From: a virus
Reading direction: 5' to 3' (one strand)
Length of the DNA stretch: 64,000 nucleotides
IMG/VR virus record: IMGVR_UViG_3300035660_000001
Span: 32,001 to 96,000 of that record
The position numbers and the translations under genes are program-made. Shown piece after piece: positions 9,302 to 54,887 of this stretch; the first letter of the stretch is position 1; each line of letters opens with the position of its first letter. The notes below the pieces were generated by a model. That model worked only from the letters and a program-made list of their open reading frames with translations. It searched no databases and was not told the DNA's origin.

Positions 9302-9336
9302 GCCGGGAGTAACCCGGTCTTAGGGAGAGGCTCGAC

Positions 9337-10860: not shown

Positions 10861-10916
10861 GTCGGCTATCTCGGATAGCTGATTGTCTTTACACTAAGCA
10901 CATAAGGAGTTAGAGC

Positions 10917-33747: not shown

Positions 33748-36700
33748 ATGCCAACCTGGAATTTCCTAGTCGGTCTCGGCATCGTCGATCAGGGAACGGG
33801 TAAGTTCCTGAAGGACACTAAGAAAGAGCTCGATGGGACTACGGGTAGTTTCAAGAGCCTCGGGAATACCGCCGACGACGTAGCCGACCGGACCGCTAAG
33901 GGCGCCAAGCAGATGGCCGACGCCGTTGACAAGAGTTCCAGGGAAATGAGCCGATCGTGGAGGGATGCTGGGAAGAGCGCCCGGCAGATGGGCGGTGGCC
34001 GAGGTGGAGGCCGGGGAGGTCGGGGGGGAGATAAATACGGGTTCCTCGGTTTCGATATCAGGGACATAGGAGACAAGCTCAAGGGTCTGGGTAAGGCCGG
34101 GGGCGGTATTTTCACGGGTCTGGCCGGGGACTTCGGGGACATGATCGACACGAACGTCGAGTGGAGCTCGAGCTTTAAGGAGACGGCGGGGATATCCGAG
34201 AAGTCCGTAGCCCGCATGTCGACGTCTATCGTGACGCAGATGCATCGGGCCGGGATCGGGATCCGTGAGGCCAGCGGGGCGTGGGAGGATTTACGGGAGA
34301 ACCTGACGTCCGACGAGGCGGTCCGGGATATGAAGCGGGCGGTGGGCCTGAAGGAAGCCTTTGATATCCCGGCGTCGACGTATGCCACGTGGGTCGGGAT
34401 GTCGGAGACTTCCGGCCTGACCCAGAAGAACATGGCCGACCTGTTAGATACGTCTGCGGGCATGACCAAGAAGATGGGGCTTCCGAAGGGCTTTCTCAAG
34501 GAGATGATGGGGCTGTCGGAGACGGCCAGTGAGATCTCCCTCTCCTTTGGGTTAGCTCCCGAGAAGACCGCGAGCATGACGAAGAGCATGATGCGGGCCG
34601 CCGCGGCGATGCAGAAGACCCTCAAGATCGGGATCGAAGATGCAACCCGGTCAATTGAGAACATGGTCAAGAAAACGTCGGATCGCCGGAGGGAGATGCG
34701 GAGGTTCAGCCTCGGCCTCGGCGGGGATATGGACGCCGTTATGGACTCGGTAACGAATCTCGCTAAGGGTGTGGGGGATGCCGACTTTGCCTTCTCCCTG
34801 CTCATGGATCAGGACCCGACCGACGTTAAGAAGAAGCTGATAGATTTTGCCAAGACGATTCAGGGGGACACGACGGCGACCAACCGACTTTATGAAACCG
34901 TATCGGAAGCCTTCGGGGAGGACACGGCGAATGAGGTCGTCCGCCTGGGGAAGAAGATGGAGAAGAACCTGGGCGATGCCGCCAAGTCGCAGACGGCGAA
35001 CTTCGGGGAGATGGGGAAGTCTATCGAAGACGTCATGGCTACGGCGACCCGGGCGGAGAACCGGGCGAAGATGGCCGAACAGGTAAAGCTCTTCCAGGAG
35101 GGGTCGTTCTTCGTCGGGGAGTATGTGCGCCAGCTCGGAAAGTATGCCGACGCACAGGACAAGATCGCCAGGAAGACTACAGGCTGGGCGGGGGCCCACA
35201 AGAAGGCGATGGACTTCATAGCTAAGTTTGTCGTCGGCAAGCAGATGATGGAGTTCGCTGGCGGTAGGCGTGGTGGCGGGGGTTTTGCGGGTCTGATTCC
35301 TTCTCTCGGAATTGCGGGCGCGTCCATCGCTGGGTTGCTGGGAGGCTTTGGGGGGATGGGCAGAGGCGTGGGCCTCTTCGGAGGCGTGGCCGGGAAGTTA
35401 GGTGGAATCCAGCCGCTCGGATGGCTCAAGGGTCTCTTCGGAGCAGGGAAGGGTGTCGGGGCGGGAGCGAAGGGAGTCGGAGCGGCGGAAGAGGTTGCCG
35501 GGATGGGGGCGGGAGCCGCAGAAGCAACGGGAGGCTTTGCCCGGTTCCTCGGAGTGCTGGGAAAGGTGTCTGTTGTCCTGACGGCGATCGTCGCGGCCGC
35601 TGATTTCCTCTTCCGGGGGATCCCGAGGTTCGTCGGCATCTGGAAAGAGGGAGGGTCGATCTGGGAGAAGGGTTGGAAAACCGGAGTGGCCTACGCCGAC
35701 ACCGTGTCCCAGGTCTTGAACGATCTTACCTTCGGGCTCTACAAGTATATCGACATCTGGGGCTACATCCGTCGCTTTCTGGGCGATGACTTTCTTCTCA
35801 AATACCTTCCGAAGTTTTTCTCCGAGATCATGGGGCAGGCCGTGAGTCTTCTTAAGACAGTCATGAGCATCGGGGCAAGAATTGTCAAGTTCGGATGGGA
35901 TGTCAACGTAGCCCGGCCACTGAAGGTCGTCTGGGGTATTTTAAGGGGGGTTGCGGGAGCGATCGGATGGGCTGTTCAGAACCTCTGGAATCTCGACAAG
36001 GCCGTGTGGGGATGGGAGGCGTCTGTTGGAAAGGCTTTCGGGGGATTCGCCGTGAACCTTTTCAAATGGATTGGCCTTCCGATCGAGAACGTCGCTAAGG
36101 ATGCGATCGAGTGGGTCAAAGACATCATCCGGGTTCCCATGCAGTGGATACAGCAACACCTCGGTTGGATCAAGGACATCTGGGACAAAGCCTTCGGACC
36201 GATCAAGGATTATATCGAAGCTGTAAAGGCGTTCATCGATCTCCGGAAGGGGGAGATGGCAACCGAGACCGGGGTTGGTGGTGCAGGGACGTGGGGGAAG
36301 GATACCTGGGGGGACGTCCTTGGTGGTGGGGCCACAATGAAGCGGTTCGGGGGTGGCCCGAACGTCGCGGCCCTTCAAACGAGATTCGGCCCGGACTTTC
36401 TCGACAAGATCATGGGAATAGAATCCGCCGGGGGGAAGGCTGAGGGAAAGGCTTCTTCGAAGGGTGCCCGGGGGTTAATGCAGTTAATGCCTTCAGTTTA
36501 CGAACCCCACGGTTTGACTGCTGAAATGCTTTCCCAACCCGAAGCGGCGGCAAGAAAACATCTCGGCAAAGGAGCTTCGGAGCAGAGCATTAAGGCGATG
36601 GCCGAGACTTATCGCAAGCGGGGCGTCGAGGTCGGGACCGGGGAGCTCGTCCGCTATTACGACTCCTATCTCAAGCAGGGATACTCCCAGGATCAGGCTC

Positions 36701-37203
36701 AGGTTCTGGCGACGATGGCCTACAACATGGGCCCCGGGGGAGTAACGAAGTGGTTAAAAGGAGGAGCCCTCAATTCCGAAACCAGAAATTATATATCGAA
36801 GGCGTTCGGTGGACTCGACGTTGAGGCCCACCGGGCAGAGTATGTGACTCCCGGAGAAACTGCGGGAGGACTCGTTACTGGGGCACCAACCGTAACTGCG
36901 CCTGCCGGGTATGAGGGAGCGGATTATGATATGGGCGACGTCACTGCTGGGGGAATGCCCGAAATGCCTGGACTGCCCGGAGGTGGTGCCCCGGATATCG
37001 CTTATACTGGTGTTCCTGCCCGAGGCGGTGGTGGGGGGGGCGGGGAAGGGCTGGCGGGTGTTCTCGGGTCGATTGTGGACACCCTGAAGCGTCTCAAGGG
37101 GGATGTCTTTATGGATGGCAAGAAGATCGGCGAGGTCGTGTGGGGGAACATCAAGGACAAGGTCGATGCCGAGCTTCGTGAAGGGGTGTCCACTCGTGGA
37201 TAA
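33748..37203 (+). CDS. Tape measure protein with C-terminal lytic transglycosylase
   Basis: Long helical Ala/Gly-rich protein; IESAG, KGARGLMQLMP, AYNMG, ETRNY motifs. Confidence 0.9.
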   Translation: MPTWNFLVGLGIVDQGTGKFLKDTKKELDGTTGSFKSLGNTADDVADRTAKGAKQMADAVDKSSREMSRSWRDAGKSARQMGGGRGGGRGGRGGDKYGFLGFDIRDIGDKLKGLGKAGGGIFTGLAGDFGDMIDTNVEWSSSFKETAGISEKSVARMSTSIVTQMHRAGIGIREASGAWEDLRENLTSDEAVRDMKRAVGLKEAFDIPASTYATWVGMSETSGLTQKNMADLLDTSAGMTKKMGLPKGFLKEMMGLSETASEISLSFGLAPEKTASMTKSMMRAAAAMQKTLKIGIEDATRSIENMVKKTSDRRREMRRFSLGLGGDMDAVMDSVTNLAKGVGDADFAFSLLMDQDPTDVKKKLIDFAKTIQGDTTATNRLYETVSEAFGEDTANEVVRLGKKMEKNLGDAAKSQTANFGEMGKSIEDVMATATRAENRAKMAEQVKLFQEGSFFVGEYVRQLGKYADAQDKIARKTTGWAGAHKKAMDFIAKFVVGKQMMEFAGGRRGGGGFAGLIPSLGIAGASIAGLLGGFGGMGRGVGLFGGVAGKLGGIQPLGWLKGLFGAGKGVGAGAKGVGAAEEVAGMGAGAAEATGGFARFLGVLGKVSVVLTAIVAAADFLFRGIPRFVGIWKEGGSIWEKGWKTGVAYADTVSQVLNDLTFGLYKYIDIWGYIRRFLGDDFLLKYLPKFFSEIMGQAVSLLKTVMSIGARIVKFGWDVNVARPLKVVWGILRGVAGAIGWAVQNLWNLDKAVWGWEASVGKAFGGFAVNLFKWIGLPIENVAKDAIEWVKDIIRVPMQWIQQHLGWIKDIWDKAFGPIKDYIEAVKAFIDLRKGEMATETGVGGAGTWGKDTWGDVLGGGATMKRFGGGPNVAALQTRFGPDFLDKIMGIESAGGKAEGKASSKGARGLMQLMPSVYEPHGLTAEMLSQPEAAARKHLGKGASEQSIKAMAETYRKRGVEVGTGELVRYYDSYLKQGYSQDQAQVLATMAYNMGPGGVTKWLKGGALNSETRNYISKAFGGLDVEAHRAEYVTPGETAGGLVTGAPTVTAPAGYEGADYDMGDVTAGGMPEMPGLPGGGAPDIAYTGVPARGGGGGGGEGLAGVLGSIVDTLKRLKGDVFMDGKKIGEVVWGNIKDKVDAELREGVSTRG

Positions 37204-37299: not shown

Positions 37300-38625
37300 A
37301 TGAGAGTCCTGATTCTCGACACTGGGCTTGCCCTCGATCTGGCTAGGAGACTGGCCGCAGAGGGGGATGAGGTCTATTATTACCTCAACAAGATCAGGAA
37401 TTACCCGGACGAGTCCGAGGCCATCTACGGCAAGGGGCTCTTTGAAGAGTGGGGGGTCAAGCGGATCGATATGTATGAATCCGTTCTAAGCTATGTCGAC
37501 TACGTTATAGCAACGGATATCGGCTACGGGAAGCACCTCGACCACTTCCGGGCGAAGGGAACGCTGGTCTACGGAGCCCCGTTCCTCGGAGAGAGGCTCG
37601 AGACGGACCGGGAGTTCGGCAGAGAGACCCTCGCAGGTTACGGGGTGAAGGTCCCGGAGGTCACGGTCCACAACACCAAAGAGGACGCCGTCCAGCATAT
37701 CAAGAAGGATCCCGGGGGCTACGCCTATAAGTCGGATGAGTCCCGCAACAAAAAGACCTTCGTGACCAAATCTCCGGAGGCCATGATCAAGTTCCTTGCC
37801 GGGCTGTCCTCCTCGGCTCCGATCCGGCTTGAGAAGTTCATCGATGGTGTGGAGATCGCCGTCGGAGGCTTTTTCAACGGGCAAGAGTTCCTGGGGCCCA
37901 AACTGACTTCCTTCGAGTACAACAAGACCTTCCCCGGAGATCTCGGGCCGATGAACTCGGAGATCGGGACGGCGATGTATTACGACGAGACCGGAGGGAA
38001 GGCGTTTGCGGAGACCCTAACGAAGATCGAGCCATTCCTGCGGATGGTCGGCTACCGGGGCTATGTGGAGGTCTCCTGCATTGTCAACGAGAACGGAACG
38101 CACGTCATTGAGTTCACTAACCGCTTCGGCTACCCGGTCTACATGATTCAGATGACGCTTCACAAACGCTTCGGGGAGGTTCTCTCGTCGGTCGCCTACG
38201 GGACCCTTCTGGACCCACGGTTCAGGCCGAAGTGGGATATCTTGAAGCGCCGCTGGGCGATCGGGACGTGCTGGTGCGTGAACGGCTATCCCTACACGGA
38301 GGTCATGAAGGCCCGGGGCGGGGACTGGTCGATCGTCTACGGCATCGACAAGGCGATCAAGGAGGGATCCCGGGTCGGGTTCTTCGGGGTGGTTAAGGAG
38401 GATGGGAAGTATATCGCCCTCCCCGACTACGGTCGGACGGTCTGCATCACGGGACAGGGCCAGACGATCTCCCAGGCCATGCAGGAGATGAACGACAGCG
38501 CCCGGAAGATATGGATCCCGGACGGCTTCTACCGTTACGATATCGGAGCCCGCACGATCGCCGAGGGGCAGAAGCTTCTCGAGTGGGGCTACGTCGACAA
38601 GGACTGGGCGAAGAGCTTCCGATGA
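37300..38625 (+). CDS. PurD-like ATP-grasp ligase, copy A
   Basis: LETDREFG, EKFIDGVE.AVGGFFNG, EIGT, EFTNRFGYP, YRYDIG. Confidence 0.8.
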   Translation: MRVLILDTGLALDLARRLAAEGDEVYYYLNKIRNYPDESEAIYGKGLFEEWGVKRIDMYESVLSYVDYVIATDIGYGKHLDHFRAKGTLVYGAPFLGERLETDREFGRETLAGYGVKVPEVTVHNTKEDAVQHIKKDPGGYAYKSDESRNKKTFVTKSPEAMIKFLAGLSSSAPIRLEKFIDGVEIAVGGFFNGQEFLGPKLTSFEYNKTFPGDLGPMNSEIGTAMYYDETGGKAFAETLTKIEPFLRMVGYRGYVEVSCIVNENGTHVIEFTNRFGYPVYMIQMTLHKRFGEVLSSVAYGTLLDPRFRPKWDILKRRWAIGTCWCVNGYPYTEVMKARGGDWSIVYGIDKAIKEGSRVGFFGVVKEDGKYIALPDYGRTVCITGQGQTISQAMQEMNDSARKIWIPDGFYRYDIGARTIAEGQKLLEWGYVDKDWAKSFR

Positions 38626-38744
38626 GCTACACCTTCGACCCCGACGCCGTTGAGTCTTTGATCACGACAGAGATTTTTCTGCTGTCCCCGATCACCGTCC
38701 TGCTCGATATCGAATCATACATCCCGGAGGATGATAATGGCTAG
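38622..38744 (+). CDS. 40-aa peptide with S-x-I periodicity
   Basis: ATGA overlap; MSYTFDPDAVESLITTEIFLLSPITVLLDIESYIPEDDNG. Confidence 0.45.
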   Translation: MSYTFDPDAVESLITTEIFLLSPITVLLDIESYIPEDDNG

Positions 38745-39036
38745 GGTCTATCTCGGTCAGACTGCGTTGCGGATTCGTATAAATACGGGGGTCGATCTCA
38801 CCGGGGCAACGACACTCCAAGCCGCAGTCAAGAAACCGTCCGGGGCGGGGGTTCTGTGGGACTGTTCGGGCGAAGCCCCGCTGACGGCGGGAATCATGTA
38901 TCACGATGTCGTTACGGCCTCAGAGCTCGATGAGGCCGGGCAGTTTACTCTTCAGTCTTACGTTGTGTTCTCCGATGGCCGCTGGGCTTACGGGGACGAA
39001 GCCTTTATGATCGTTCATCCAATCTCTTCGGTGTGA
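38731..39036 (+). CDS. Small beta-sandwich virion protein (BppU-N-like)
   Basis: VDLTGAT...VKKPSG...ELDEAG.F.LQ.YV.F. Confidence 0.55.
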   Translation: MIMARVYLGQTALRIRINTGVDLTGATTLQAAVKKPSGAGVLWDCSGEAPLTAGIMYHDVVTASELDEAGQFTLQSYVVFSDGRWAYGDEAFMIVHPISSV

Positions 39037-39044
39037 GGTGAGCC

Positions 39045-39371
39045 ATGCCTGAAGGACCGAGCTTTATACAGCTTCCCGTAGACGGCCAGGGAAAGAAAAC
39101 CCGTTCGCACGTGCGGACCGTTGCGGGGGCGGACGTCCACGAGCAGTATGTCATTCTCGATACCCCGCCGTTAACGACCCGGGTAGATGAGGTGGACGCC
39201 AATACTTTCTATGTCGGGAAGGCCGCCATCGGGAGTGCCGAGACTGCGGCTGTGTGGCAGATCAAGAAGGGGATCAAGGTTGGGACGGAGACGAAGATTT
39301 TGGATCCAGTAACAACCGGAGATACGTTCGTGAATAGGTGGGATCAGCGGACTACTATAACTTACGCATAA
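39045..39371 (+). CDS. Small structural protein
   Basis: RVDEV....YVGKA..GS....AVWQIKK...W..R.T..Y. Confidence 0.55.
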   Translation: MPEGPSFIQLPVDGQGKKTRSHVRTVAGADVHEQYVILDTPPLTTRVDEVDANTFYVGKAAIGSAETAAVWQIKKGIKVGTETKILDPVTTGDTFVNRWDQRTTITYA

Positions 39372-39374
39372 GCC

Positions 39375-42300
39375 ATGTCTCCTGCGAAACCAGTTTTTAA
39401 CGGCGCAAGCTCCAACGTGATGAGCACCGGCCTTTTGGCTGGTGGCGTCCTGTCGGTCACTCCCGGTCACCCATCCTGGTTCGATATCAGTGATGGGTCC
39501 GGGGTTGTCGTTGATAACTATACCGACACGCTTCATCCCCGAAAGACGGTGGTGGCTTGGTCTGGGAAGACGGGCATTGAAGTTACGAATTTGCTTACAG
39601 CTTTGGTGACCTATGTGGCCCTCGACAAAAATGGGCATGTCATCCAGTCTACTGTAAACTTTACTCCCGATGAACGCCGGGATTTGATTGTCCTTGGCGG
39701 ACTTAGTCACTTTGGTCATGCGGTGATCGAATTTATTGCGAACTATCCTTCTGTCGCATACGATGATTCCGCTCAGTTTGTCGATTTCGCCGATGCAATC
39801 GGTCCCATAAATATCACCGGTAATGTCTATGGGCCAAACGGGATGAACCTGAACCTCGATAAGTCGGGGGGATCTTCGTTTAAGATCGGCAGTAATTATG
39901 TCGCCGACAAAAAAACTCCCAACGTCCATCCTGACAACACAGGGACTGCTCTTTACTTCTTTTACGATTATCATACTGGTCCGGGTACTTGGGGAACGGT
40001 AGGCCCTCTCAATATTATCGATCCCGACCACTACGACAACGGGCTTGGATTAGAAGACGTTCCGGAGGACATGTGGACGATCCAGATGATTTTCTACGTT
40101 CCTGCGGCTGGTCTGACTTCAATTCAATATGGTCAGGAGATATACGACACCAAGGAAACTGCTCGAGCACATCTCCAGGATCCCGTGGATATTCTTCCGG
40201 AGCTAGCTTCCGGGAACGCGCTGTTCCGGGGTTGGTTAATCGTCCGTCAAGGCGCTATCGATTTAAGTGATCCTACCTGGGCTCAATTTGACATAGCGGG
40301 TAAGTTTGGTCTTGTCTCTGAAATCACAGGAACAGGTGGCGGCGAAGCGAATACGGCATCGAACAATGGCTTGGCCGGAACGGGGCTATACCTTCAGAAA
40401 CAGGGAGTCGACCTTCAGTTCAAGAATATCCGGGCGGCCTCTTCTCAGATCACAGTCGCTGACAATCCTGCCCTTAAAACGGTAGACATCGATCTTGGGG
40501 CGGGGGCCTCCGGTCAGAGCGGGTACAGTGGTCACAGCGGGTACTCTGGACAGTCCGGATTTAGCGGAGCCTCGGGTCTCAGTGGAGCTTCGGGTCTTAG
40601 CGGTTCTTCCTTTGTCGGATCGTCGGGGTATTCCGGCTTCAGCGGGTTTACAGGAGCCTCTGGTCTTTCTGGGGCCTCAGGCGCCAGTGGAGCTTCTGGT
40701 CTTTCGGGGGCATCCGGGACCAGCGGTGCCTCGGGACAGTCTGGGTATTCTGGTGCCAGTGGGTTGTCAGGGGCCTCGGGAGCCTCCGGCCAGTCCGGGT
40801 ATAGTGGTTTCTCGGGTTTCACCGGGGCGTCTGGTCTGTCCGGGGCCTCCGGTGCCAGTGGGGCATCTGGTGCCTCGGGGAACTCGGGGTATTCGGGGTT
40901 CTCCGGGTTCTCTGGATCCGGGGCTTCCGGTGCTTCCGGAGCCTCTGGGGCTAGTGGGCAATCCGGCTATTCGGGTCTATCCGGCTTCAGTGGACTTTCT
41001 GGGGCCTCTGGTGCGTCCGGTGCGAGCGGGGCTAGTGGATCATCGGGTTACAGCGGGTTGTCAGGCCAGAGTGGCCTTTCCGGGGCATCTGGGGCCTCTG
41101 GTGCGTCGGGTCAGTCCGGTTACAGCGGGTTCTCTGGGTTTTCCGGTTTATCAGGGGCATCAGGGGCATCTGGCGCTTCCGGGACCTCCGGGGCTAGCGG
41201 GGCCTCCGGGGCCAGTGGCTATTCTGGATTTAGCGGGTTCAGCGGGGCTTCAGGACTCTCCGGAGCATCCGGGGCCAGCGGCGCCTCGGGGCAGTCGGGC
41301 TACAGCGGGTTCTCTGGGTTTACGGGAGCCTCGGGACTGTCTGGGGCATCGGGACTTTCAGGAGCCAGCGGGGCCAGCGGGGCTAGCGGGACTAGCGGGT
41401 ATTCCGGCTTCTCAGGATTTACGGGTCTATCGGGAGCTTCGGGCGCTTCGGGAGCAAGTGGAGCCAGTGGACAATCCGGATACAGTGGCTTCTCGGGCTT
41501 CAGCGGAGCCAGCGGTCTTTCGGGATCTTCGGGAGCGTCCGGTGCTTCGGGTGCCTCTGGCCAGTCTGGCTACTCGGGCCTTAGTGGACTCTCCGGTTCT
41601 TCCTTTATCGGATCGTCGGGCTACAGTGGGCAGTCCGGATTCAGCGGACTCAGTGGAGAGTCAGGCGCGAGCGGGGCTTCCGGGACCGGGGCATCCGGAC
41701 AGTCAGGATATAGCGGGTTCAGTGGTTTCTCGGGGTCAGGCGCATCGGGTGCCAGTGGAGCGAGCGGAGCATCTGGTCAATCAGGTTACTCCGGTCTCAG
41801 TGGGCTCTCGGGATCCTCCTTCTCTGGATCATCCGGTTACAGTGGACAGTCCGGGTTCTCCGGGCTCTCGGGTGCGTCTGGTTTGTCGGGTGCGGGCGGT
41901 GCTTCTGGTGCTTCTGGTGCATCGGGAGCGTCCGGGGCCTCGGGCTACTCTGGGTTTAGCGGGTTCTCGGGGGAATCGGGCCTTTCTGGAGCTTCCGGTG
42001 CGAGTGGAGCGTCCGGCGCCTCTGGTGCTTCTGGACAATCTGGATATTCAGGATTTTCTGGGTTTACAGGAGCATCCGGACTTAGCGGAGCATCCGGAGT
42101 AAGCGGTACATCCGGAGCTTCCGGGCTCTCGGGTTATAGTGGTTTCTCGGGATTTACGGGGGCATCTGGCCTCAGTGGGGCGTCTGGACTTTCAGGAGCC
42201 GGTGGAGCATCCGGAGAGTCCGGTGCCTCGGGAGCATCAGGGCTCTCGGGTTACAGCGGGTTTAGTGGGTTTTCGGGAATCTCGGGAGCCTCGGGACTTT

Positions 42301-43505
42301 CCGGTGCCGGCGCCTCGGGAGCATCAGGACAATCAGGCTACTCGGGCTACAGTGGTTTCTCGGGGTTTAGCGGTCTTAGCGGCGCCTCGGGAGCTAGTGG
42401 AGCCTCCGGCGCTAGTGGGGCATCCGGGCTTTCAGGTTACAGTGGATTTTCAGGGTTCAGCGGAGCTACGGGTATCTCTGGTGCTTCTGGGCTTTCGGGA
42501 GCAAGTGGGGCCAGCGGTGCCAGTGGGCAGTCTGGGTACTCCGGTCTCAGCGGACTCTCGGGGTCATCTTTCATTGGACAATCTGGGTACTCCGGGTTGT
42601 CTGGGTTCTCGGGTCTATCCGGAGCCAGCGGTCTTAGCGGAGATTCCGGGGCATCCGGGGCCAGCGGCCAGAGCGGCTATTCGGGATATTCCGGGTTCTC
42701 GGGTTTTACTGGGGCTTCAGGAGCTTCGGGGGCTTCGGGAGCCTCTGGTCTCTCCGGCACTAGTGGTGCTTCAGGTCAGAGTGGTTATAGTGGGTATGTG
42801 GGAACGCCTGGGTCTGGTGGCTTGCTTCTGATGACCGAGCTCGCTACTCCCGGAGCAGGAACTTGGACTAAAAACGCTAGTACTAATTTTATTAGGGTGA
42901 TCGGAGTCGGTGGTGGCGGCGGTGGTGGAGGAGCGAACTCAGCGGCGAATAACGCATCTGCAGGAGGTGGAGGTGGCGGCGGTGGATTCTTTGAAATCTG
43001 GGTTACTAGTCCTCCGGCCTCGCTTAATTATTCTGTAGGAGCCGCGGGAGCGAATGGCTCTGCTACTGGTGGGACTGCCGGAGGTGCTGGGGGCCCAACT
43101 ATCTTCGGAAACGACAATGGCTCCATCAATTGCAATGCCAACGGGGGGAATGGCGGGGTGGCGGGAGGAAATGCTAATGCAAGAACTATAAACGCAGGAG
43201 GGGCAGGAGGCGTTCCTACTTCGGCTGTGGCGGCGGCTCAGGCTGTTCTGGTCACTGGTTCTAACGGGACGGATGCCTTCATCTCCAATAAGGTTCTGTG
43301 TTGGAGTGGCAACGGGTCTACTGGCTTCTGGGGCGGCGGTGGTGGTGGAGCGTATGCTACAAACGTCATTGCGATGGCCGGGGGTAATGCTCAGACCAGT
43401 CAATACGGGACAGGCGGAGGTGGGGCGGCTGTTGGTAACGGAGCGAACAGTGCTCGTGGAGGGACGGGAGCACAGGGAGTTTTGATCATCTATGAATACG
43501 CATAA
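39375..43505 (+). CDS. Gly-X-Ser collagen-like fibre protein with Gly-rich C-terminal domain
   Basis: Globular N-terminus, LQFKNI linker, ~770-aa (SGX)n region, GGGGGGG-type tip domain. Confidence 0.85.
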   Translation: MSPAKPVFNGASSNVMSTGLLAGGVLSVTPGHPSWFDISDGSGVVVDNYTDTLHPRKTVVAWSGKTGIEVTNLLTALVTYVALDKNGHVIQSTVNFTPDERRDLIVLGGLSHFGHAVIEFIANYPSVAYDDSAQFVDFADAIGPINITGNVYGPNGMNLNLDKSGGSSFKIGSNYVADKKTPNVHPDNTGTALYFFYDYHTGPGTWGTVGPLNIIDPDHYDNGLGLEDVPEDMWTIQMIFYVPAAGLTSIQYGQEIYDTKETARAHLQDPVDILPELASGNALFRGWLIVRQGAIDLSDPTWAQFDIAGKFGLVSEITGTGGGEANTASNNGLAGTGLYLQKQGVDLQFKNIRAASSQITVADNPALKTVDIDLGAGASGQSGYSGHSGYSGQSGFSGASGLSGASGLSGSSFVGSSGYSGFSGFTGASGLSGASGASGASGLSGASGTSGASGQSGYSGASGLSGASGASGQSGYSGFSGFTGASGLSGASGASGASGASGNSGYSGFSGFSGSGASGASGASGASGQSGYSGLSGFSGLSGASGASGASGASGSSGYSGLSGQSGLSGASGASGASGQSGYSGFSGFSGLSGASGASGASGTSGASGASGASGYSGFSGFSGASGLSGASGASGASGQSGYSGFSGFTGASGLSGASGLSGASGASGASGTSGYSGFSGFTGLSGASGASGASGASGQSGYSGFSGFSGASGLSGSSGASGASGASGQSGYSGLSGLSGSSFIGSSGYSGQSGFSGLSGESGASGASGTGASGQSGYSGFSGFSGSGASGASGASGASGQSGYSGLSGLSGSSFSGSSGYSGQSGFSGLSGASGLSGAGGASGASGASGASGASGYSGFSGFSGESGLSGASGASGASGASGASGQSGYSGFSGFTGASGLSGASGVSGTSGASGLSGYSGFSGFTGASGLSGASGLSGAGGASGESGASGASGLSGYSGFSGFSGISGASGLSGAGASGASGQSGYSGYSGFSGFSGLSGASGASGASGASGASGLSGYSGFSGFSGATGISGASGLSGASGASGASGQSGYSGLSGLSGSSFIGQSGYSGLSGFSGLSGASGLSGDSGASGASGQSGYSGYSGFSGFTGASGASGASGASGLSGTSGASGQSGYSGYVGTPGSGGLLLMTELATPGAGTWTKNASTNFIRVIGVGGGGGGGGANSAANNASAGGGGGGGGFFEIWVTSPPASLNYSVGAAGANGSATGGTAGGAGGPTIFGNDNGSINCNANGGNGGVAGGNANARTINAGGAGGVPTSAVAAAQAVLVTGSNGTDAFISNKVLCWSGNGSTGFWGGGGGGAYATNVIAMAGGNAQTSQYGTGGGGAAVGNGANSARGGTGAQGVLIIYEYA
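40500..42800 (+). repeat. Degenerate 9-bp (Ser-Gly-X) tandem repeat
   Basis: SGA/SGL/SGY/SGF/SGQ units with varied synonymous codons. Confidence 0.9.
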
Positions 43506-43516
43506 CGGAGGATGCG

Positions 43517-44218
43517 ATGTGGCAGAAGCGTTCTAAAAAGACAGTGTTCACATTGAATTTAGACCCGGACAAGTATCGGGAGATCACCGATATGACCTAT
43601 CCCTTGCTGAAGGAGTATGCGAGGAAGATAGAGGCGGATTTTCATGTGATCTCCGAGAGAAAGTTCCCCGAATTCAAGAGTCCGACCTACGAGAAGTGCC
43701 AGGTCTATCAACTGGCGCAGGATATGAACAATGACTGGAACATCTTTTTCGACTGCGATGCTCTCGTCCATCCCGACACGCCGGATATCACGAACCTGCT
43801 CTCGAAGGATACCGTCCTGCACAACGGCTCCGACTTTGCTCCTCTCCGGTGGAGGTATGATCGGTTCTTCCAGCGGGACGGAAGGCATATCGGCTCCTGC
43901 TCTTGGTTGGAGATCGCAAGTGATTGGTGCATAGAGCTATTTAAGCCTCTGGATGATCTCACTCCGGAAGAAGCTAACGCGAACATCTTTCCGCTTGCCG
44001 GGGAGACAGCTTCTGGCTACGAACCATATCGGTTGATTGAGGACTACGTGTTCTCCCGGAACATAGCGAAGTTCGGTTTGAAGTTCATTACGTTCGAAGA
44101 CCTCATGGTGAAGTATGCCAAGCTGAAGGGGAACTTCTTCTGGCACAACTATGCTATTCCCATTGAGGAGAAGGTGGAGCAGATGAAGCAGATTCTCCGG
44201 GAGTGGAAACTGACATGA
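43517..44218 (+). CDS. GT-A-type glycosyltransferase-like protein
   Basis: YARKIEADF, YEK, WNIFFDCDA (DxD), C-terminal HNY. Confidence 0.6.
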   Translation: MWQKRSKKTVFTLNLDPDKYREITDMTYPLLKEYARKIEADFHVISERKFPEFKSPTYEKCQVYQLAQDMNNDWNIFFDCDALVHPDTPDITNLLSKDTVLHNGSDFAPLRWRYDRFFQRDGRHIGSCSWLEIASDWCIELFKPLDDLTPEEANANIFPLAGETASGYEPYRLIEDYVFSRNIAKFGLKFITFEDLMVKYAKLKGNFFWHNYAIPIEEKVEQMKQILREWKLT

Positions 44219-45672
44219 AGTCGATGATGGAGATGGACACGGTCCAGATAGAGATTACCGATGCCTGCCGTTTGCGGTGTTCTAACTGCACCCGTTTCTG
44301 CGGACACAAGAAGCCCTACTTCATGTCCTTCGACCAGTTCAAGGAGTCGGTCGACTCGATGGTTGGGTATCCCAAGATGGTGGGGATCATGGGAGGAGAG
44401 CCTCTGCTTCATCCGGAGTTCGAGAGGTTCTGCGCCTATGCACGATCCAAGATACCAAAGGTCCAGCTCGGGCTCTGGACCTCTCTTCCAGAAGGGCATG
44501 AGGATTACAGGACGGCTATCTGCGATACCTTTGAGCATATCTTTATCAATGATCATACCCGAGGGGACGTGATCCATCACCCGCCCCTGGTGGCCGCCGA
44601 AGAAGCCGTTCCGGATCGGGGGATCATGTGGAGTTATATTAACCACTGCTGGGCCCAGGAGAGCTGGAGCGCGTCGATCAATCCGCATGGAGCCTGGTTC
44701 TGCGAGATTGCCGCCGCTATGTCTATGCTCTTCGATGGGGGGCAGGGATGGAAGGTGGAACCCGGTTGGTGGTGGAGGATCCCGAAGGACTTTACGGAGC
44801 AGATGGAAATGTTCTGTCCCCGGTGCGGGTTTGCCATCCCATTGAAGAGGCGGGTGAGCACTGGCGTAGTGGACGACATTTCCCCGAAGAACCTGGAGCG
44901 GTTGACGGGTAAGTCCCTTAAGGTAGCTCGGGGCGAGTACGAAGTTAGCCCGTTGACCCTAGAGAACGACTTCAGGCCGATGGCGACCTACAAGGACACG
45001 GACTACCGGAACGGGATAGCCAGGCGTTACGGTATGTTCGTCGTCGTGAACCAGCAGAAGTTCTGGACCCCGCACCTACTGAGGAAGCAGGATAAGTCGG
45101 AGGCGCAACCGCACAAGCCCCTGTTGGAAGTTCTACGGGAGAGAAACCTCTACAAGGGGAACGGCATCGACGGTTTTATGGCGGACGACAACCTTGTCTG
45201 GCTATTCGATATTGCTCGGAAGATGAATAGCATAGTCGAGGTTGGATCATGGAAGGGGAGGAGCACCCACGCTCTGTTGAGTGGTTGCCCGGGGACAGTC
45301 TGGGCCGTAGACCATTTCAAGGGAAGCATGGCCGAGCGTGAAAGAACCCAGTCTCACTTTGAGGCCACAATCCGGGATGTGTCGGAAGATTTTCTGAAGA
45401 ATGTCGGGATGTTCCCGAACCTGAAGCTCTTGAAGGTGGATAGCATAGAAGCGTCCAAGCACTTTGAGCCCCAATCCATAGACATGGTCTTCATAGACGG
45501 CGGGCATACCTACGAGGATATTTATCTCGACCTTGAGGCCTGGACTCCCATTGCCCGGAAGATGATCTGCGGACACGATTATGGCTCCGAGGTCAAGGAT
45601 GCCGTCGACAAGAAGTTTGGCGAAGACAGGGTTGAGACCAGGGACTTTGGGCTCTGGATGGTGAATCTATGA
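44215..45672 (+). CDS. Radical SAM domain fused to class I methyltransferase (Methyltransf_24-like)
   Basis: CRLRCSNC, MGGEPLLHP; VEVGSWKGRS, VDHF, FIDGGHTYE, GHDY. Confidence 0.85.
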   Translation: MKSMMEMDTVQIEITDACRLRCSNCTRFCGHKKPYFMSFDQFKESVDSMVGYPKMVGIMGGEPLLHPEFERFCAYARSKIPKVQLGLWTSLPEGHEDYRTAICDTFEHIFINDHTRGDVIHHPPLVAAEEAVPDRGIMWSYINHCWAQESWSASINPHGAWFCEIAAAMSMLFDGGQGWKVEPGWWWRIPKDFTEQMEMFCPRCGFAIPLKRRVSTGVVDDISPKNLERLTGKSLKVARGEYEVSPLTLENDFRPMATYKDTDYRNGIARRYGMFVVVNQQKFWTPHLLRKQDKSEAQPHKPLLEVLRERNLYKGNGIDGFMADDNLVWLFDIARKMNSIVEVGSWKGRSTHALLSGCPGTVWAVDHFKGSMAERERTQSHFEATIRDVSEDFLKNVGMFPNLKLLKVDSIEASKHFEPQSIDMVFIDGGHTYEDIYLDLEAWTPIARKMICGHDYGSEVKDAVDKKFGEDRVETRDFGLWMVNL

Positions 45673-46571
45673 AAATTCTAGTGACTGGTGGCGCTGGATT
45701 TATTGGAGCGCATCTCTGTCGAAGACTGCTTCGGGATGATCATGAAGTGGTCTGTGTGGACAATTTTTCTACTGGGGAGCGTAAAAACATCGAAGACTTG
45801 CTGGGTAACACAAGATTTGAATTATACCAGCAAGATGTCACTGTCCCATTCGATGAGGACTTCGAGCAGTGCTTTAGTCCAAATCAGATATACAACCTGG
45901 CGAGTCCTGCGGCTCCTGGTCAGTACCGGAAGGAGTCTCTGAATACCGTCATGACGAATGTCGTGGGAATGATCAACGTGCTTAACCTGGCTCGATCCAG
46001 CTCGGCCACCGTCCTTCAGGTGTCCACATCGAAGGTCCGGAACGTGATCGATAACTGCGGGCTGGACGGATGTTACATTGAAGGAAAGAGGTGCGCCGAG
46101 ACGATCTGTGTGGAATATCGCAACAAATTCGGGCTGGACGTGAGGATCGCACGGCTGTTTAACGTCTACGGCCCGGGGATGTCGTTGGAGGACTCTCGGG
46201 TCGTCCCGCAGTTCATCATGAGGGGCCTTGCTGGAAGACCTCTGGTCGTCTGGGGAGATGGTACGCAGGAGGATTTGTTTCTCTACGTCGACGACGCAGT
46301 GGAGGCTCTAATCCTACTGATGAACGATCCTCTTTACTCCGCTCCCACCTACATCGGAGGAAAGGCCAAGATAACCATTCGGGACTTAGCCGAGCTGGTC
46401 GACTCGCTGTTGCCGAACCGCTGTGGCATCTCGTTTGAGTTTAACGAGAACGCCGGGGCATTGGAAGTCATCGTGCCGCCTATTTTCGGGTCTCAGGCGG
46501 TTCCGCTCGTCGATGGAATCCAGAAGACCATCAGTTATTTTAAAAGTGCTCTTCAGGAGAAGGCATCATGA
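45669..46571 (+). CDS. NAD-dependent epimerase/decarboxylase, UDP-glucuronate decarboxylase-like (variant)
   Basis: VTGGAGFIG, YNLASPA, CYIEGKR, IARLFNVYGP, GDGTQ. Confidence 0.85.
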   Translation: MKILVTGGAGFIGAHLCRRLLRDDHEVVCVDNFSTGERKNIEDLLGNTRFELYQQDVTVPFDEDFEQCFSPNQIYNLASPAAPGQYRKESLNTVMTNVVGMINVLNLARSSSATVLQVSTSKVRNVIDNCGLDGCYIEGKRCAETICVEYRNKFGLDVRIARLFNVYGPGMSLEDSRVVPQFIMRGLAGRPLVVWGDGTQEDLFLYVDDAVEALILLMNDPLYSAPTYIGGKAKITIRDLAELVDSLLPNRCGISFEFNENAGALEVIVPPIFGSQAVPLVDGIQKTISYFKSALQEKAS

Positions 46572-46936
46572 CTCTTTTCAAGACTGTAGATTTCGGTCCG
46601 GGCTACGAGAGCCTGGGGACGGTCGGATATGTCCTTTACAATCCCAACGGGTCGGTGAAGCAGGTCCGGACGACGTCGGGCGTAGTCAACATATCCCAGG
46701 CGACCTACGGATGCAACATGACGCTAGACGCCGACTGGAAGGGGAGCATCGTGTGGGACACGGGAGGAGCGAGCCCTATCTATGCCTCCGACGATTTTAA
46801 CTACGCCGAGGCTTCTCTCGGGGTGGCCGGGGCGGTCTGGGATCAGCCGACGAGCGCGCATGTGGGTGCGGGATCGTTCGGGGAGTGGGTCAAGAACGGG
46901 CTGTTATCCTTCGCCAAGTTCATCGGGCTGAAATGA
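46568..46936 (+). CDS. Small structural protein
   Basis: TVGY.LYN..G; AVWD.....H...GSFG. Confidence 0.55.
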   Translation: MTLFKTVDFGPGYESLGTVGYVLYNPNGSVKQVRTTSGVVNISQATYGCNMTLDADWKGSIVWDTGGASPIYASDDFNYAEASLGVAGAVWDQPTSAHVGAGSFGEWVKNGLLSFAKFIGLK

Positions 46937-47040
46937 TACATCCCCTCCTCGACATGATGTGGGCGGACCACTGGACGATCCTGGCCCGGGTGATCATCAA
47001 CCTCAAATCCTTCATCGCAAAGTCATGGCCTCATTCCTGA
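46933..47040 (+). CDS. 35-aa peptide (not in track)
   Basis: ATGA overlap; MIHPLLDMMWADHWTILARVIINLKSFIAKSWPHS. Confidence 0.4.
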   Translation: MIHPLLDMMWADHWTILARVIINLKSFIAKSWPHS

Positions 47041-48350
47041 TCATGGACACGGCCCTGGCGATGGCTCTCGCCAAGAGGCTTCGAGATGAAGGCCACAAGG
47101 TCTTTTACTGGGTGAACTGGGCCCGGGCACACCCGGAGATTTACGAGACGACCTACGGCAAGGGACTCTTCGAGGAGTGGGGAGTCAAGAAAGTGGAAGG
47201 GTTTCTCGACATCGCTAAGTCCGTAGACTGCGTGGTTTCCACGGACGTCGGGTTCGGGCAGGAAGTGGACGGCCTCCGGGAAGACGGAATCAAGGTCTTT
47301 GGGGCCGGGGGAGGGATTGCCAAGTGGGAGCTCGACCGGAAGCTGGGAAAGCAGGTTATGCGGGACGCAGGGATCCAGACACCCCACTCAGAAGCCTTCC
47401 AGGACGTCAAGAAGGCCATCCAGACCGTCCAGAACGGCAAGGTGGGCTACTGCGTCAAGGTTTCCGAGATGTTGGCCAAGGGGACGTATGTCGGCAGGGC
47501 CGTGGACGACACGGTTGATTACCTCGAGAAGGTGAAGGAGAAGGCCGGGGACAAGGCTGATCTCATCCTCGAGGAGAAGGTCGAAGGCGTGGAGATGGCG
47601 ATCGGGGGGTTTTACGACGGGAAGAAGTTTGTCCGGCCTCTCTGCTTGAACTTCGAGGAGAAACGTCTCGTGGCCGGAGGGCAGGGGGCCCTCACGGGCG
47701 AGATGGGGACAAGCCTCCGTTACGTTCAGGGCGGGAAGCTCTTCGAGGAGACCCTGGCGAAGCTCGAGGGGCTGATGTCCGAGGGCGATCGCTTCCGGGG
47801 CTACTTCGACATTAACTGCATCGTAAACGAGGAAGGCGTCTTCGGAATTGAATTCACGTCCCGGTTCGGCTATCCCTTGCTTCTCATTCAGATGGCCTTG
47901 CATAAGGATGGCGTCGGAGATCTGCTTATGAAATGCGCCTTCGGGGAGAAGGATATCAGTCCCCAGATCATGCGGGGTTGGGCGGTCGGGGTGACCCTCA
48001 ACATCGGGTCTTATCCTTTCGACGAGTGCTTCCCCCAATACGACTGGGAGGTCGTGAACGGGATCCCCGAGGCCGAACAGAACGGTTGCGATCTCCAACC
48101 GTTCGGGCTTGTCCTCGAGGACGGGGTCTACAAAGTTCTCCCCGGCATGGGGCGGATTTTATGCTCAAATGGCGTGGATGAGAAACTTCCCGAGGCCCGA
48201 AGGAAGGCGCTTGATGCATTCGACTACGTCTCAGTGAACGATGGCCACTACCGGAACGATATCGGCATGCGGGTGACCTACGCCGGGGAGCGGCTCAAGA
48301 AGCTCGGCTACTTCGATGACGAGCTTCTGAAGAGCGTGGAGGAAGCATGA
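47025..48350 (+). CDS. PurD-like ATP-grasp ligase, copy B
   Basis: WELDR, EEKVEGVEMAIGGFYDG, NFEEK, LTGEMGT, EFTSRFGYP, YRNDIG. Confidence 0.85.
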   Translation: MASFLIMDTALAMALAKRLRDEGHKVFYWVNWARAHPEIYETTYGKGLFEEWGVKKVEGFLDIAKSVDCVVSTDVGFGQEVDGLREDGIKVFGAGGGIAKWELDRKLGKQVMRDAGIQTPHSEAFQDVKKAIQTVQNGKVGYCVKVSEMLAKGTYVGRAVDDTVDYLEKVKEKAGDKADLILEEKVEGVEMAIGGFYDGKKFVRPLCLNFEEKRLVAGGQGALTGEMGTSLRYVQGGKLFEETLAKLEGLMSEGDRFRGYFDINCIVNEEGVFGIEFTSRFGYPLLLIQMALHKDGVGDLLMKCAFGEKDISPQIMRGWAVGVTLNIGSYPFDECFPQYDWEVVNGIPEAEQNGCDLQPFGLVLEDGVYKVLPGMGRILCSNGVDEKLPEARRKALDAFDYVSVNDGHYRNDIGMRVTYAGERLKKLGYFDDELLKSVEEA

Positions 48351-48634
48351 AGTCCATGCCCTTCGGGTCCAGGCTCAACAAGGCGACCTACCAGACAATA
48401 GGCAACGTCGCCTTCTGGGATTCGGACTTCGTCGACGTGGCCGGGAATACGGATGATCTCTTCGTAGCCTTCACCGGAGGGGATCGGCTTGACTTTATTG
48501 CCCACCGGGCTTACGGGACCGTCCACGGCTGGTGGGTGATCGCATCGATCAACCGGATCCAGCTTCCGGTGACCGACCTGCAGGCCGGGGATCTCCTGCG
48601 GATCCCGTCCTTTGCGAAGTTCGGGGCGATATGA
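48347..48634 (+). CDS. Baseplate LysM-like protein (tail X/gp53-like)
   Basis: GDRLDFIAHRAYG....WWVIASIN.I......L.AGD.LRIP. Confidence 0.8.
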   Translation: MKSMPFGSRLNKATYQTIGNVAFWDSDFVDVAGNTDDLFVAFTGGDRLDFIAHRAYGTVHGWWVIASINRIQLPVTDLQAGDLLRIPSFAKFGAI

Positions 48635-53877: not shown

Positions 53878-54300
53878 ATGCCGACCACTCAGAAGTGTCT
53901 TTTCGTCTATCCCCCTGAAGGAGATACCTCCTCGTATGCTACGCTAGAGAACCTCTTTCGGGCTTTCGACCAGTTCACCTACGGGAGTTACCGGAATCAT
54001 GGCCTCATTCCCATCCAGGATGGAGGGTTCGCCTACTCGAGCGGGGCCGCGACAGTCTCGTGGACGGAGGCTAAGTGGTTCAATCCCTTCAGCGGGCAGG
54101 TCTTGACTCTTGCCGCAGGAAGCATCGCCGTTGAGGATGGGCAGTGTCTCTACTTCAAAGTCTACGACACTTCCCTCGTCTTGTATGCGGGGTCCGTCGT
54201 TCCCGTCGAGAGCACGATCTACGTGCTGGGTGTTCGATGGGGGAATGCCTTCCTTGTTATTCCGGGTCGTCTGGCCGTCACAAATCTTCCGGCGCCATAA
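53878..54300 (+). CDS. Hypothetical tail protein
   Basis: AGGAGG RBS; position in baseplate module. Confidence 0.55.
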   Translation: MPTTQKCLFVYPPEGDTSSYATLENLFRAFDQFTYGSYRNHGLIPIQDGGFAYSSGAATVSWTEAKWFNPFSGQVLTLAAGSIAVEDGQCLYFKVYDTSLVLYAGSVVPVESTIYVLGVRWGNAFLVIPGRLAVTNLPAP

Positions 54301-54314
54301 TAGGAGGAGGAACC

Positions 54315-54887
54315 ATGTTAAACATTGCCGAGTATATCGTCCTTCATCACTCGTTCTCCCCGGATAACAATGTCACGTCCGACTGGGAGGGGATCAGAAA
54401 ATACCACAAGAGCTGGCGGTTCGATGGAAAGATCGTTACTCCGGAGATCGGGAAACAGCTCCAGGCGCAGGGGAAGCATGTCGAGGGTCCCTGGTCGGAT
54501 ATCGGCTATCACGGCGGCTTGGAGTTCGTCGACGGCAAACTCAGCTGGCGACGGGGGAGAATCTTCTGGACCGGTGGAAGCCATGCTCTTGGGTTCAACG
54601 ACCGGAGCCTGGGCTTCGTGGCGATCGGGGATTACGATCACAACCCCGTCCCGGATCCCGTGTGGCAGGGAATGCTCAAGATGGTTTTCGCCACCTGTTT
54701 CCTTTCCGGGATCCACATCTCGAACGTCCTCGGCCACAGGGAGACTTATGTGATGTTACATAAGCCCGTCGAGAAGCAATGCCCGGGGGCAAACTGGGAT
54801 ATGGACAAGTTCAGGGCCGATCTGAAGGCTATGCAACCGAACATCGAACAAATCATGGGGGTGTGTTATGGAGAAGGCGACTTATAA
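54315..54887 (+). CDS. N-acetylmuramoyl-L-alanine amidase (endolysin, amidase_2)
   Basis: IVLHHS, DIGYH, GSHA.G.N..SLG, GHRE, K.CPG. Confidence 0.88.
   Translation: MLNIAEYIVLHHSFSPDNNVTSDWEGIRKYHKSWRFDGKIVTPEIGKQLQAQGKHVEGPWSDIGYHGGLEFVDGKLSWRRGRIFWTGGSHALGFNDRSLGFVAIGDYDHNPVPDPVWQGMLKMVFATCFLSGIHISNVLGHRETYVMLHKPVEKQCPGANWDMDKFRADLKAMQPNIEQIMGVCYGEGDL

Follow-up and report, generated by a model that had tools for sequence, protein, structure and literature searches.

A fibre with a candidate set of glycan-tailoring enzymes between two conserved ATP-grasp genes in the tail operon of an uncultured phage

Introduction

Do the enzymes encoded next to a phage fibre gene modify that fibre, and do they form one pathway with everything else that is encoded around it? 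The question is raised by a run of genes in a 64,000-nucleotide stretch of viral DNA (the window), which corresponds to bases 32001-96000 of the 160,139-bp IMG/VR virus record IMGVR_UViG_3300035660_000001. The record carries direct terminal repeats and comes from an uncultured phage known from a metagenome only. Positions 37300 to 48350 of the window, which we call the island, sit within a myovirus-type tail operon. They encode a collagen-like fibre, a glycosyltransferase (GT), a protein combining a radical S-adenosylmethionine (SAM) domain with a methyltransferase (MT), and a nucleotide-sugar short-chain dehydrogenase/reductase (SDR), all bracketed by two ligases of the ATP-grasp type (A and B). 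An earlier note, made from the sequence alone, had proposed that these genes form a single pathway producing a fibre that is glycosylated, methylated and perhaps amino-acylated. The gene order and coordinates that it gave, from ATP-grasp A through ATP-grasp B, were borne out by our reading of the sequence.

That viruses glycosylate their virions with enzymes of their own is established for giant viruses and chloroviruses, and lately also for mycobacteriophages; among phages it is deemed exceptional. The island has the arrangement expected of such a system, a phage-encoded glycosyltransferase within a structural module. When each gene family was followed into other viral loci, the parts of the proposed single pathway separated from one another. 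On balance, we read the region as a host-range cassette lying between conserved ATP-grasp flanks, with a cargo that brings its own glycan-tailoring set, and not as one pathway.

Results

We compared the island with the corresponding region of L003, a 159.5-kb relative of the window phage. Along ATP-grasp A, as far as base 38621 in its stop codon, the DNA of the two was 87-92% identical; identity collapsed after this base and returned at 47034, within the first bases of the ATP-grasp B gene, whose protein is 92% identical to its L003 copy. Between these flanks, the fibre and the enzymes are replaced in L003 by a beta-helix protein of 521 aa and a protein of 814 aa, and diverged homologues of three small genes of the island (g101, g108 and g122) are kept. 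No homologue of the island GT and no Gly_rich_2 domain, the domain that forms the tip of the fibre, was found in the whole 159.5-kb L003 record. A second arrangement was seen in L006 (~8600-11338), where two ATP-grasp paralogues are separated by only a 114-aa gene, with no fibre, which suggests that the pair was originally adjacent. We then sampled the neighbourhood of the ATP-grasp family in 79 viral loci, searching 10 kb: a GT, radical SAM, SDR or collagen gene was found within this distance in none of them (0/79). The earlier note had placed the ATP-grasp enzymes in the sugar pathway. Their retention in L003 with a swapped cargo and the absence of sugar genes from all 79 loci speak against this, and as judged from these sequence comparisons the pair appears to belong to the conserved tail backbone, being neither cargo nor a pathway member.

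That two ATP-grasp ligases bracket the fibre and the sugar enzymes was confirmed by domain matches. A and B are paralogues of 441 aa each, 37% identical, and their membership of the ATP-grasp superfamily is indicated by matches to GARS_A and GARS_C, by the catalytic Lys/Glu/Arg residues and by a PurD-like architecture. Residues K145, E190, E276 and R280 do not vary across 21 sequences, both paralogues among them, and the family profile matches PurD 2yw2 with an E value of 1e-44 over positions 1-410, indicating full-length homology. Against TIGR00877 (PurD), A nevertheless scores 79.1 bits and B 120.3 bits, below the 288-bit equivalog cut-off, and the PurD substrate motifs are not kept: TGGMG and EFNVRLGDPE of 2yw2 correspond to TGEMG and EFTSRFGYP in the family, and in copy A NSEIG replaces TGGMG. 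In L003, ATP-grasp A is a 786-aa open reading frame (ORF) containing a ~330-aa intein (L003:1776-2767; LAGLIDADG_3 and Intein_splicing matches) that interrupts the EFTNRFGYP motif after EFT, a position consistent with a conserved site of functional importance. The ATP-grasp A of the window is free of the intein.

The ATP-grasp family was found in at least 542 stretches of viral contigs. In 46 of the 73 other phage loci used for this count, the gene directly upstream of the ATP-grasp gene encoded at least 550 aa, versus 12% of all ORFs. In podovirus-like contigs this upstream partner is an internal virion or ejection protein, carrying an SLT domain in one neighbour group and giving a weak M15 match in another. 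A large lytic, injected or tape-measure protein is the likelier partner of the ATP-grasp enzymes. A tblastn search of phage records with ATP-grasp B returned mostly bacterial purD in contaminated or mislabelled records; the few apparently genuine phage matches were to spring and Aquificae viruses. Named homologues came from metagenome-assembled genomes (MAGs) of DPANN archaea, Halobacteria, Patescibacteria (candidate phyla radiation, CPR) and Elusimicrobia, where they are annotated as PurD; they may represent a cellular branch or viral contigs that were binned wrongly. The gamma-glutamyl modules of phiRIO-1, LUZ24 and PhiM6 were considered as a counterpart of the pair and set aside, belonging to another family and another context.

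The fibre (39375-43505) is a protein of 1376 aa in three parts, an N-terminal domain, a collagen-like stalk and a Gly_rich_2 tip. The stalk of ~775 residues matched Pfam Collagen (PF01391) with 295 bits, so that the Ser-Gly, (SGX)n collagen-like fibre of the earlier note stands. In total 783 residues of the fibre lie in Gly-X-Y runs with short breaks only. Ser occupies 235 of the 261 Y positions of the stalk, the X positions are mostly Ala, Leu, Phe, Tyr or Gln, and the 775 residues include one Pro, almost no charged residues and 239 Ser-Gly dipeptides. By this composition the stalk lacks the usual stabilisers of a triple helix, Pro or hydroxyproline and charge pairs; by analogy with glycosylated collagens, sugars on Ser or Thr at the Y position may stabilise a Pro-free triple helix. 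No clean tandem array was seen in the stalk DNA, which suggests that the repeat is old and maintained. The tip scored 47 bits against PF21722, for a gathering cut-off of 24.3, and covered profile positions 3-224 of 226; when the whole genome was searched, its score was 46.3 bits. BLAST of the N- and C-terminal domains of the fibre against neighbour proteins gave no match. Where BLAST had failed, a hidden Markov model (HMM) built from Gly-rich domains did find homologues of the tip, namely the fibre tip of locus L096 and the N-termini of large proteins encoded after the GT in other phages. Judged by its domain matches, the fibre would be a chimera in which a Gly-X-Ser stalk typical of the lineage is joined to a Gly_rich_2 tip.

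The 233-aa protein encoded after the fibre had no match in Pfam, NCBIfam or PHROGs. Its AlphaFold (AF2) model, with a predicted local distance difference test (pLDDT) score of 94, showed a GT-A Rossmann-like fold. The best fold match in the PDB, obtained with Foldseek, was A064R-D1 of virus PBCV-1 (2p6w, E 1e-7, probability 1.00), followed by the collagen galactosyltransferase COLGALT1, UGGT, B3GNT2 and GT8; matches among the viral models of BFVD were GT34-like. The DxD motif (D79, D81) is invariant in 22 sequences of 56-72% identity. The "DxD transferase" of the earlier note is accordingly a confident GT-A fold with an invariant DxD, despite the lack of a Pfam match. The protein is small and has no obvious membrane segment. 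Its family is tight, with more than 800 metagenomic proteins, and was present in at least 134 viral contigs; in cells it was found in 16 of 185,579 species genomes, all of them MAGs.

In order to see what accompanies this GT, we surveyed 80 viral loci, in 69 of which the GT ORF was recovered. By tblastn, at least 23 of the 80 loci had the radical SAM part and at least 16 had the methyltransferase part. A radical SAM gene lay within four genes of the GT in 18/69 loci, and it was a separate gene beside the GT in at least 21 phage loci other than the window. A methyltransferase was nearby or fused to the GT in 19/69, twelve of these being GT-MT fusions of ~420-450 aa (L089, L090, L094, L097, L098, L102, L109-L111, L121, L123 and L153), and an SDR was near the GT in 6/69. 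The radical SAM-MT fusion is unique to the window in this sample. With the tip HMM, a Gly_rich_2 protein was found directly adjoining the GT in 17/69 loci, versus 0/79 of the ATP-grasp loci used as control. The major capsid gene was within four genes of the GT in 16/69. Besides the window, the GT family always occurs in structural modules, with at least four unrelated gene orders: an ATP-grasp gene before portal, capsid and GT; portal and capsid before a GT-MT fusion and head closure; portal, capsid and a 142-aa gene before the GT; and terminase and a 186-aa gene before the GT, with a large fibre-like protein after it.

A collagen was present in only one of the 80 GT loci. In this locus (L096), a Thr-rich collagen (Gly-Asp-Thr-Gly-Thr-His) with a Gly_rich_2 tip is followed by the GT, the radical SAM and the SDR genes, which is the order found in the window. 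Collagen was rejected as the partner of the island GT, given this single occurrence and the near absence of the GT family from the 78 collagen loci described below. The enzymes of the island track the Gly_rich_2 tip (or capsid genes), not Ser-Gly repeats.

The radical SAM-methyltransferase that the earlier note had read was confirmed with Pfam as a 489-aa fusion, radical SAM in its N-terminal part and Methyltransf_24 in its C-terminal half. In the radical SAM domain, CxxxCxxC (C22, C26, C29) and G64-G65-E66 (GGEP) are invariant or nearly so, four further Cys (C149, C167, C205, C208) are invariant, and PF04055 matched with 36 bits. A sequence search of the fusion against the PDB gave a marginal methyltransferase match only, and in the ESM Atlas the only matches were unnamed viral radical SAM clusters. 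The structure model was more informative. The AF2 model (pLDDT 90.6) aligned with SpeY (7wzv) at Z 17.0 over 243 residues and 3.3 A, covering model residues 6-286 including the auxiliary-cluster domain, and with BtrN at Z 11.9, whereas all other structures, including peptide maturases, had Z of 9.6 or less.

The SDR matched human UXS1 (4gll) with 211 bits (E 2.5e-61), versus at most 87 bits for the next solved SDR family. The Rossmann GxxGxxG motif and the Tyr-x-x-x-Lys dyad are conserved (CYIEGKR, versus CYDEGKR in UXS1). The catalytic Thr-Ser-Glu is replaced by Thr-Ser-Lys (STSKV versus STSEV), and the following loop is ~10 residues shorter. All seven SDRs of the cassette type have Arg, Lys or His at the position of the catalytic Glu, and we therefore do not class the SDR as a UXS. 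The "UXS-like enzyme" of the earlier note keeps UXS1 as its closest solved relative but not the catalytic Glu, and the proteoglycan-style xylosylation, which rests on a UXS assignment, is not supported. UDP-glucose dehydrogenase, the supplier of UDP-glucuronate, gave no match above cut-off in the phage genome. The set of sugar enzymes that the earlier note had placed directly after the fibre was recovered as a GT-A glycosyltransferase, a SpeY-like radical SAM domain, a methyltransferase and a nucleotide-sugar SDR.

We next asked which enzymes accompany stalks of the kind found in this fibre. A search with a stalk segment detected at least 172 viral stretches with the GYSGFSGF-type repeat. A sample of 78 Gly-X-Ser loci (L181-L258) was compared with 159 control phage loci. 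Only one weak match to the island GT family and one weak match to Gly_rich_2 were found in the 78 loci. A homologue of a 297-aa GT2 was found in 38 of the 78 and a homologue of a 320-aa GT9 in 30, and each in 0/159 controls. The two genes were neighbours in all 30 loci that had both, the GT9 being downstream of the GT2; the GT2s formed 9 clusters at 70% identity. The enzymes tracking Gly-X-Ser collagens are the GT2-GT9 pair. Co-occurrence across phage genomes, which the earlier note had named as a check, was thus seen for Gly-X-Ser collagens and phage GTs in the form of this pair, but not for the enzyme families of the island, which track Gly_rich_2.

The GT2-GT9 pair of the window phage itself lies outside the window (L163:15291-17200), ~67 kb downstream of the island, at the end of a second sugar cluster of 16 kb (L163:1330-17200, G000:C1:99329-115199), likewise outside the window. 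This cluster begins with a 749-aa Gly-X-Ser protein having ConA-like/3-keto-disaccharide-hydrolase domains. It also encodes an Eco57I-type N6 DNA methyltransferase, an MT-GT9 fusion, a double-GT2 protein, a methyltransferase, a GT2, a PseB-like Polysacc_synt_2 dehydratase and a UDP-GlcNAc 2-epimerase, before the terminal GT2 and GT9. The relative conserves the second cluster, with a PseB-like gene 79% identical and a 1861-aa Gly-X-Ser orthologue. An ORF of ~293 aa in the relative's cluster (L164:7920-8800, G001) has a Cys-rich start that resembles a radical SAM motif.

The remaining features of the island and its setting are collected in Table 1. All genes of the island are on the + strand, and their stops and starts abut or overlap throughout; a promoter and terminator scan of the island found no site above shuffled controls. 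When the island was compared as a whole with 50,697 phage records by megablast, no match was found. Upstream lies a tape measure protein of 1151 aa that has an SLT domain, and downstream a small baseplate protein, a gpV-type spike, and gp25 and gpJ homologues. Past the baseplate genes, the window (54144-58029) encodes a 247-aa Amidase_2 protein and a protein of 1053 aa that matches fn3 weakly, both of which may be further lytic or fibre components.

The earlier note had regarded g101, g108 and g122 as small structural genes, a role for which we found no support. No Pfam, PHROG or NCBIfam match was obtained for g101 and g108, nor any Pfam or PHROG match for g122. The C-terminal 64 residues of g122 are conserved in L003, and its Atlas matches were viral hypothetical proteins together with a weak BppU_N-like structural lead (TM 0.57). 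Neither of the two "peptides" listed as genes in the earlier note is conserved in L003: peptide A has no counterpart after the L003 ATP-grasp A, and only the first 10 residues of peptide B match the start of a 146-aa ORF (L003:9561-10001), the remainder being unrelated. The small ORFs were rejected as peptide substrates of the ATP-grasp enzymes since peptides A and B are not conserved; the conserved precursor-peptide gene beside the ligase that marks ATP-grasp systems of ribosomally synthesised and post-translationally modified peptides (RiPPs) was missing in the L003 comparison. The ATP-grasp B gene itself stands, with a corrected start: comparison with ATP-grasp A puts it at 47025 and not at 46959.

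Table 1. Features of the island and of the two genes next to it (positions in the window)
Feature	Position	Strand	Evidence or remark
Tape measure protein, SLT lytic transglycosylase domain	33748..37203	+	Pfam SLT E 3.7e-7; context, conserved upstream partner of ATP-grasp A
ATP-grasp A, PurD-like ligase, 441 aa	37300..38625	+	GARS_A, GARS_C matches; conserved left flank of cassette
Peptide A, 40-codon ORF, ATGA overlap	38622..38744	+	doubtful gene
g101, small protein, 101 aa	38731..39036	+	47% identity to L003:3496-3789
g108, small protein, 108 aa	39045..39371	+	43% identity to L003:4271-4615
Fibre, N-terminal non-repeat domain, residues 1-376	39375..40502	+	phrog_16641 tail fiber, E 7e-18, residues 17-316
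Fibre, Gly-X-Ser collagen-like stalk, residues 377-1151	40503..42827	+	Pfam Collagen E 7e-90
Fibre, C-terminal Gly_rich_2 domain, residues 1152-1375	42828..43505	+	PF21722, 47 bits
GT-A glycosyltransferase, GT34-like, 233 aa	43517..44218	+	AF2 model, fold match, DxD
Radical SAM domain, residues 1-312, twitch/SpeY-like	44203..45138	+	motifs and fold comparison
Class I SAM methyltransferase domain (Methyltransf_24), fused to radical SAM	45139..45672	+	PF13578 E 2.5e-15
Nucleotide-sugar SDR, UDP-glucuronate decarboxylase-related, 300 aa	45669..46571	+	UXS1 E 2.5e-61
g122, small protein, 122 aa	46568..46936	+	32% identity to C-terminus of L003:9085-9564
Peptide B, 35-codon ORF	46933..47040	+	probably remnant
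ATP-grasp B, PurD-like ligase, 441 aa	47025..48350	+	conserved right flank of cassette
Small baseplate protein, start of conserved baseplate module	48347..48634	+	phrog_7145 baseplate wedge subunit E 1.5e-9; 87% identity in L003; context

Discussion

Virion glycosylation is the best-supported function of both enzyme sets, by fold, position and co-occurrence, a function that is plausible and unproven. In the scheme that we favour, what is observed comprises folds and families, the boundaries of the cassette and co-occurrences across phages, while the acceptor and the sugar are what we infer. The ATP-grasp pair would stay in place on either side while the receptor-binding cargo between the two genes is exchanged. 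The cargo of the window phage would be a fibre whose Pro-free Gly-X-Ser stalk links an N-terminal anchor to a Gly_rich_2 tip, and the tip would bring its own set of GT, radical SAM-MT and SDR. The UXS-related SDR would supply or edit a UDP-sugar, the SpeY/BtrN-like radical SAM domain would oxidise a sugar hydroxyl, and the fused methyltransferase would methylate the sugar. Expressed late and acting in the cytoplasm, these enzymes may decorate the fibre before assembly, most likely at the Gly_rich_2 tip, with an oxidised, methylated sugar. The separate GT2-GT9 pair would glycosylate the Ser-rich stalk.

Several points weigh against this scheme. No glycan has been observed on virions of this metagenomic phage, and adjacency of genes does not identify an acceptor. 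The closest fold relative of the GT, A064R-D1, extends a glycan and does not initiate on protein, so that the first sugar may need another enzyme. The SDR is without the decarboxylase Glu and so does not point to a particular donor sugar. The TM-scores of the GT fold matches are moderate, at 0.53-0.58. In 35 loci a GT was found with no radical SAM or methyltransferase seen, many of these contigs being short, and the co-occurrence counts were not corrected for the relatedness of contigs. A bolder version of our scheme, possible but doubtful, is that phages carry two widespread, undescribed modules. In this version the GT2-GT9 pair would O-glycosylate Ser/Thr at the Y positions of Pro-free Gly-X-Ser/Thr stalks, the sugars stabilising the helix as hydroxyproline does in animals, and the GT34-like GT, SpeY-like radical SAM, methyltransferase and non-decarboxylating SDR would put a sugar with a keto or methyl modification on the receptor-binding Gly_rich_2 tip, with which they would move between phages as a host-range unit.

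Four other explanations were weighed against the cassette. The enzymes could act late on a surface glycan of the host (lipopolysaccharide, teichoic acid or S-layer), blocking superinfection or preventing re-adsorption to debris. Phage glycosyltransferases that change the serotype of the host are well known (cited in PMC12619734), and the genome holds many more GT2, GT9 and nucleotide-sugar genes, resembling a surface-polysaccharide repertoire. We nonetheless hold this explanation unlikely: a small GT without an obvious membrane segment, encoded inside late structural operons in four gene orders, directly adjoining one virion domain in 17/69 loci and nearly absent from cells, is better accounted for by an action on virions. 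Alternatively, the radical SAM domain, perhaps with the methyltransferase, could modify protein, by epimerisation, cross-linking or C-methylation in the Gly-rich tip, the GT being independent. The best NCBIfam matches of the N-terminal 80 residues of the fusion are mostly SPASM/twitch peptide and cofactor maturases; SuiB, PqqE, CteB, anSME and EpeE are among the fold matches, at Z 8-9.6; the four extra invariant Cys fit an auxiliary cluster; and the neighbouring Gly_rich_2 domain, unusual and dense in Gly, is a candidate substrate. The fold list is, however, clearly led by SpeY and BtrN, which are carbohydrate/cyclitol dehydrogenases, and the radical SAM gene is nearly always beside the GT and followed in 6 loci by an SDR, which is the signature of a sugar pathway. 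Modification of protein by this domain is quite unlikely on these grounds.

The single pathway of the earlier note, in which both ATP-grasp enzymes and the three others would act on one fibre through UDP-xylose, Ser-Gly xylosylation, methylation and addition of amino acids, has in its favour the tightly coupled run of genes, the many Ser-Gly dipeptides of the stalk and UXS1 as the best solved relative of the SDR. In addition, an ATP-grasp gene lies ~7 kb upstream, in the same structural module, in 4-7 of the 80 GT loci. Several observations nevertheless speak against this pathway, and we consider it very unlikely. The ATP-grasp pair is kept in L003 (92% identity) with other cargo and no sugar genes, is nearly adjacent and fibre-free in L006, and has none of the other families within 10 kb in 79 loci; a basic residue stands for the UXS Glu in all seven cassette SDRs; and the Gly-X-Ser loci are without the GT family, bar one weak match. 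Glycosylation of phage DNA, finally, seems extremely improbable. Phage GTs that hypermodify DNA are common (cited in PMC12619734), and the second sugar cluster encodes an N6 DNA methyltransferase. The cassette nonetheless lies in a tail operon, its relatives elsewhere are near capsid or fibre genes and not replication genes, and the best fold matches of the GT are protein- or glycan-directed GT-A enzymes. Among these explanations we retain the exchangeable cassette with its own tailoring set.

The distribution of the two enzyme sets across hundreds of other phages suggests that phages widely glycosylate their fibres with enzymes of their own. Should these sets act on virions, glycans on fibres would form a common, mobile layer of host recognition, stability or immune evasion, with consequences for the prediction of host range and the engineering of receptor-binding proteins. 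The comparisons provide clonable candidate enzyme-substrate pairs, the tip with the three enzymes and the stalk with the GT2-GT9 pair, and they separate the PurD-like ATP-grasp pair from the sugar enzymes.

Each component resembles a known system and departs from it. The ATP-grasp pair shares with PurD (glycinamide ribonucleotide synthetase) full-length homology and the ATP-grasp Lys/Glu/Arg, but scores below the PurD cut-off, has other substrate motifs and belongs to tail or ejection modules of hundreds of phages. The SDR shares full-length similarity, the Rossmann motif and Tyr-x-x-x-Lys with UDP-glucuronate decarboxylase (UXS1; ArnA and UAXS are related), whose catalytic Glu gives way to Lys in the island enzyme and to Arg, Lys or His in the other six SDRs of the cassette type; the loop that follows in the island enzyme is shorter. 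The radical SAM domain has the fold, the CxxxCxxC motif and the extra Cys of SpeY and BtrN, twitch dehydrogenases of aminoglycoside/aminocyclitol biosynthesis. Identity to them is 12-15%, and they belong to antibiotic clusters, whereas the domain studied here is encoded in a phage structural operon; we know of no radical SAM sugar enzyme described in such a phage setting. The stalk recalls Bacillus BclA and the collagen-like proteins of giant viruses, generally known as glycosylated surface fibres with collagen-like repeats rich in hydroxy-amino acids with dedicated glycosyltransferases. The stalk of the window phage differs in being Gly-X-Ser and Pro-poor and in having the GT2-GT9 pair as its candidate partners.

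The nearest phage parallel is that of mycobacteriophages, whose own glycosyltransferases reportedly decorate capsid and tail proteins, with the glycans demonstrated, in work of Freeman et al. in 2023 (Cell Host Microbe; cited in PMC12619734). Common to both systems are phage GTs directed, or here probably directed, to virion proteins; in the mycobacteriophages the glycans were demonstrated, whereas here there are genes only, and the GT families apparently differ. To our knowledge, no radical SAM, UXS-like SDR, collagen stalk or Gly_rich_2 domain has been linked to mycobacteriophage glycosylation. The nearest parallel for the 233-aa GT is chlorovirus A064R, which also includes a virus-encoded, soluble GT-A (GT34-like) enzyme with a DxD motif. 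A064R-D1 is the Mn-dependent rhamnosyltransferase of the PBCV-1 capsid glycan and carries the DxD, D2 is a second GT, and the third domain (D3) is a sugar methyltransferase (PMC9614988). A064R differs from the island GT in several respects: identity is 13-16%, the host is eukaryotic, the glycan is N-linked, there is no radical SAM partner, and D1 extends xylose. Its union of a GT with a class I methyltransferase is nevertheless echoed by the 12 GT-MT fusions found in phages.

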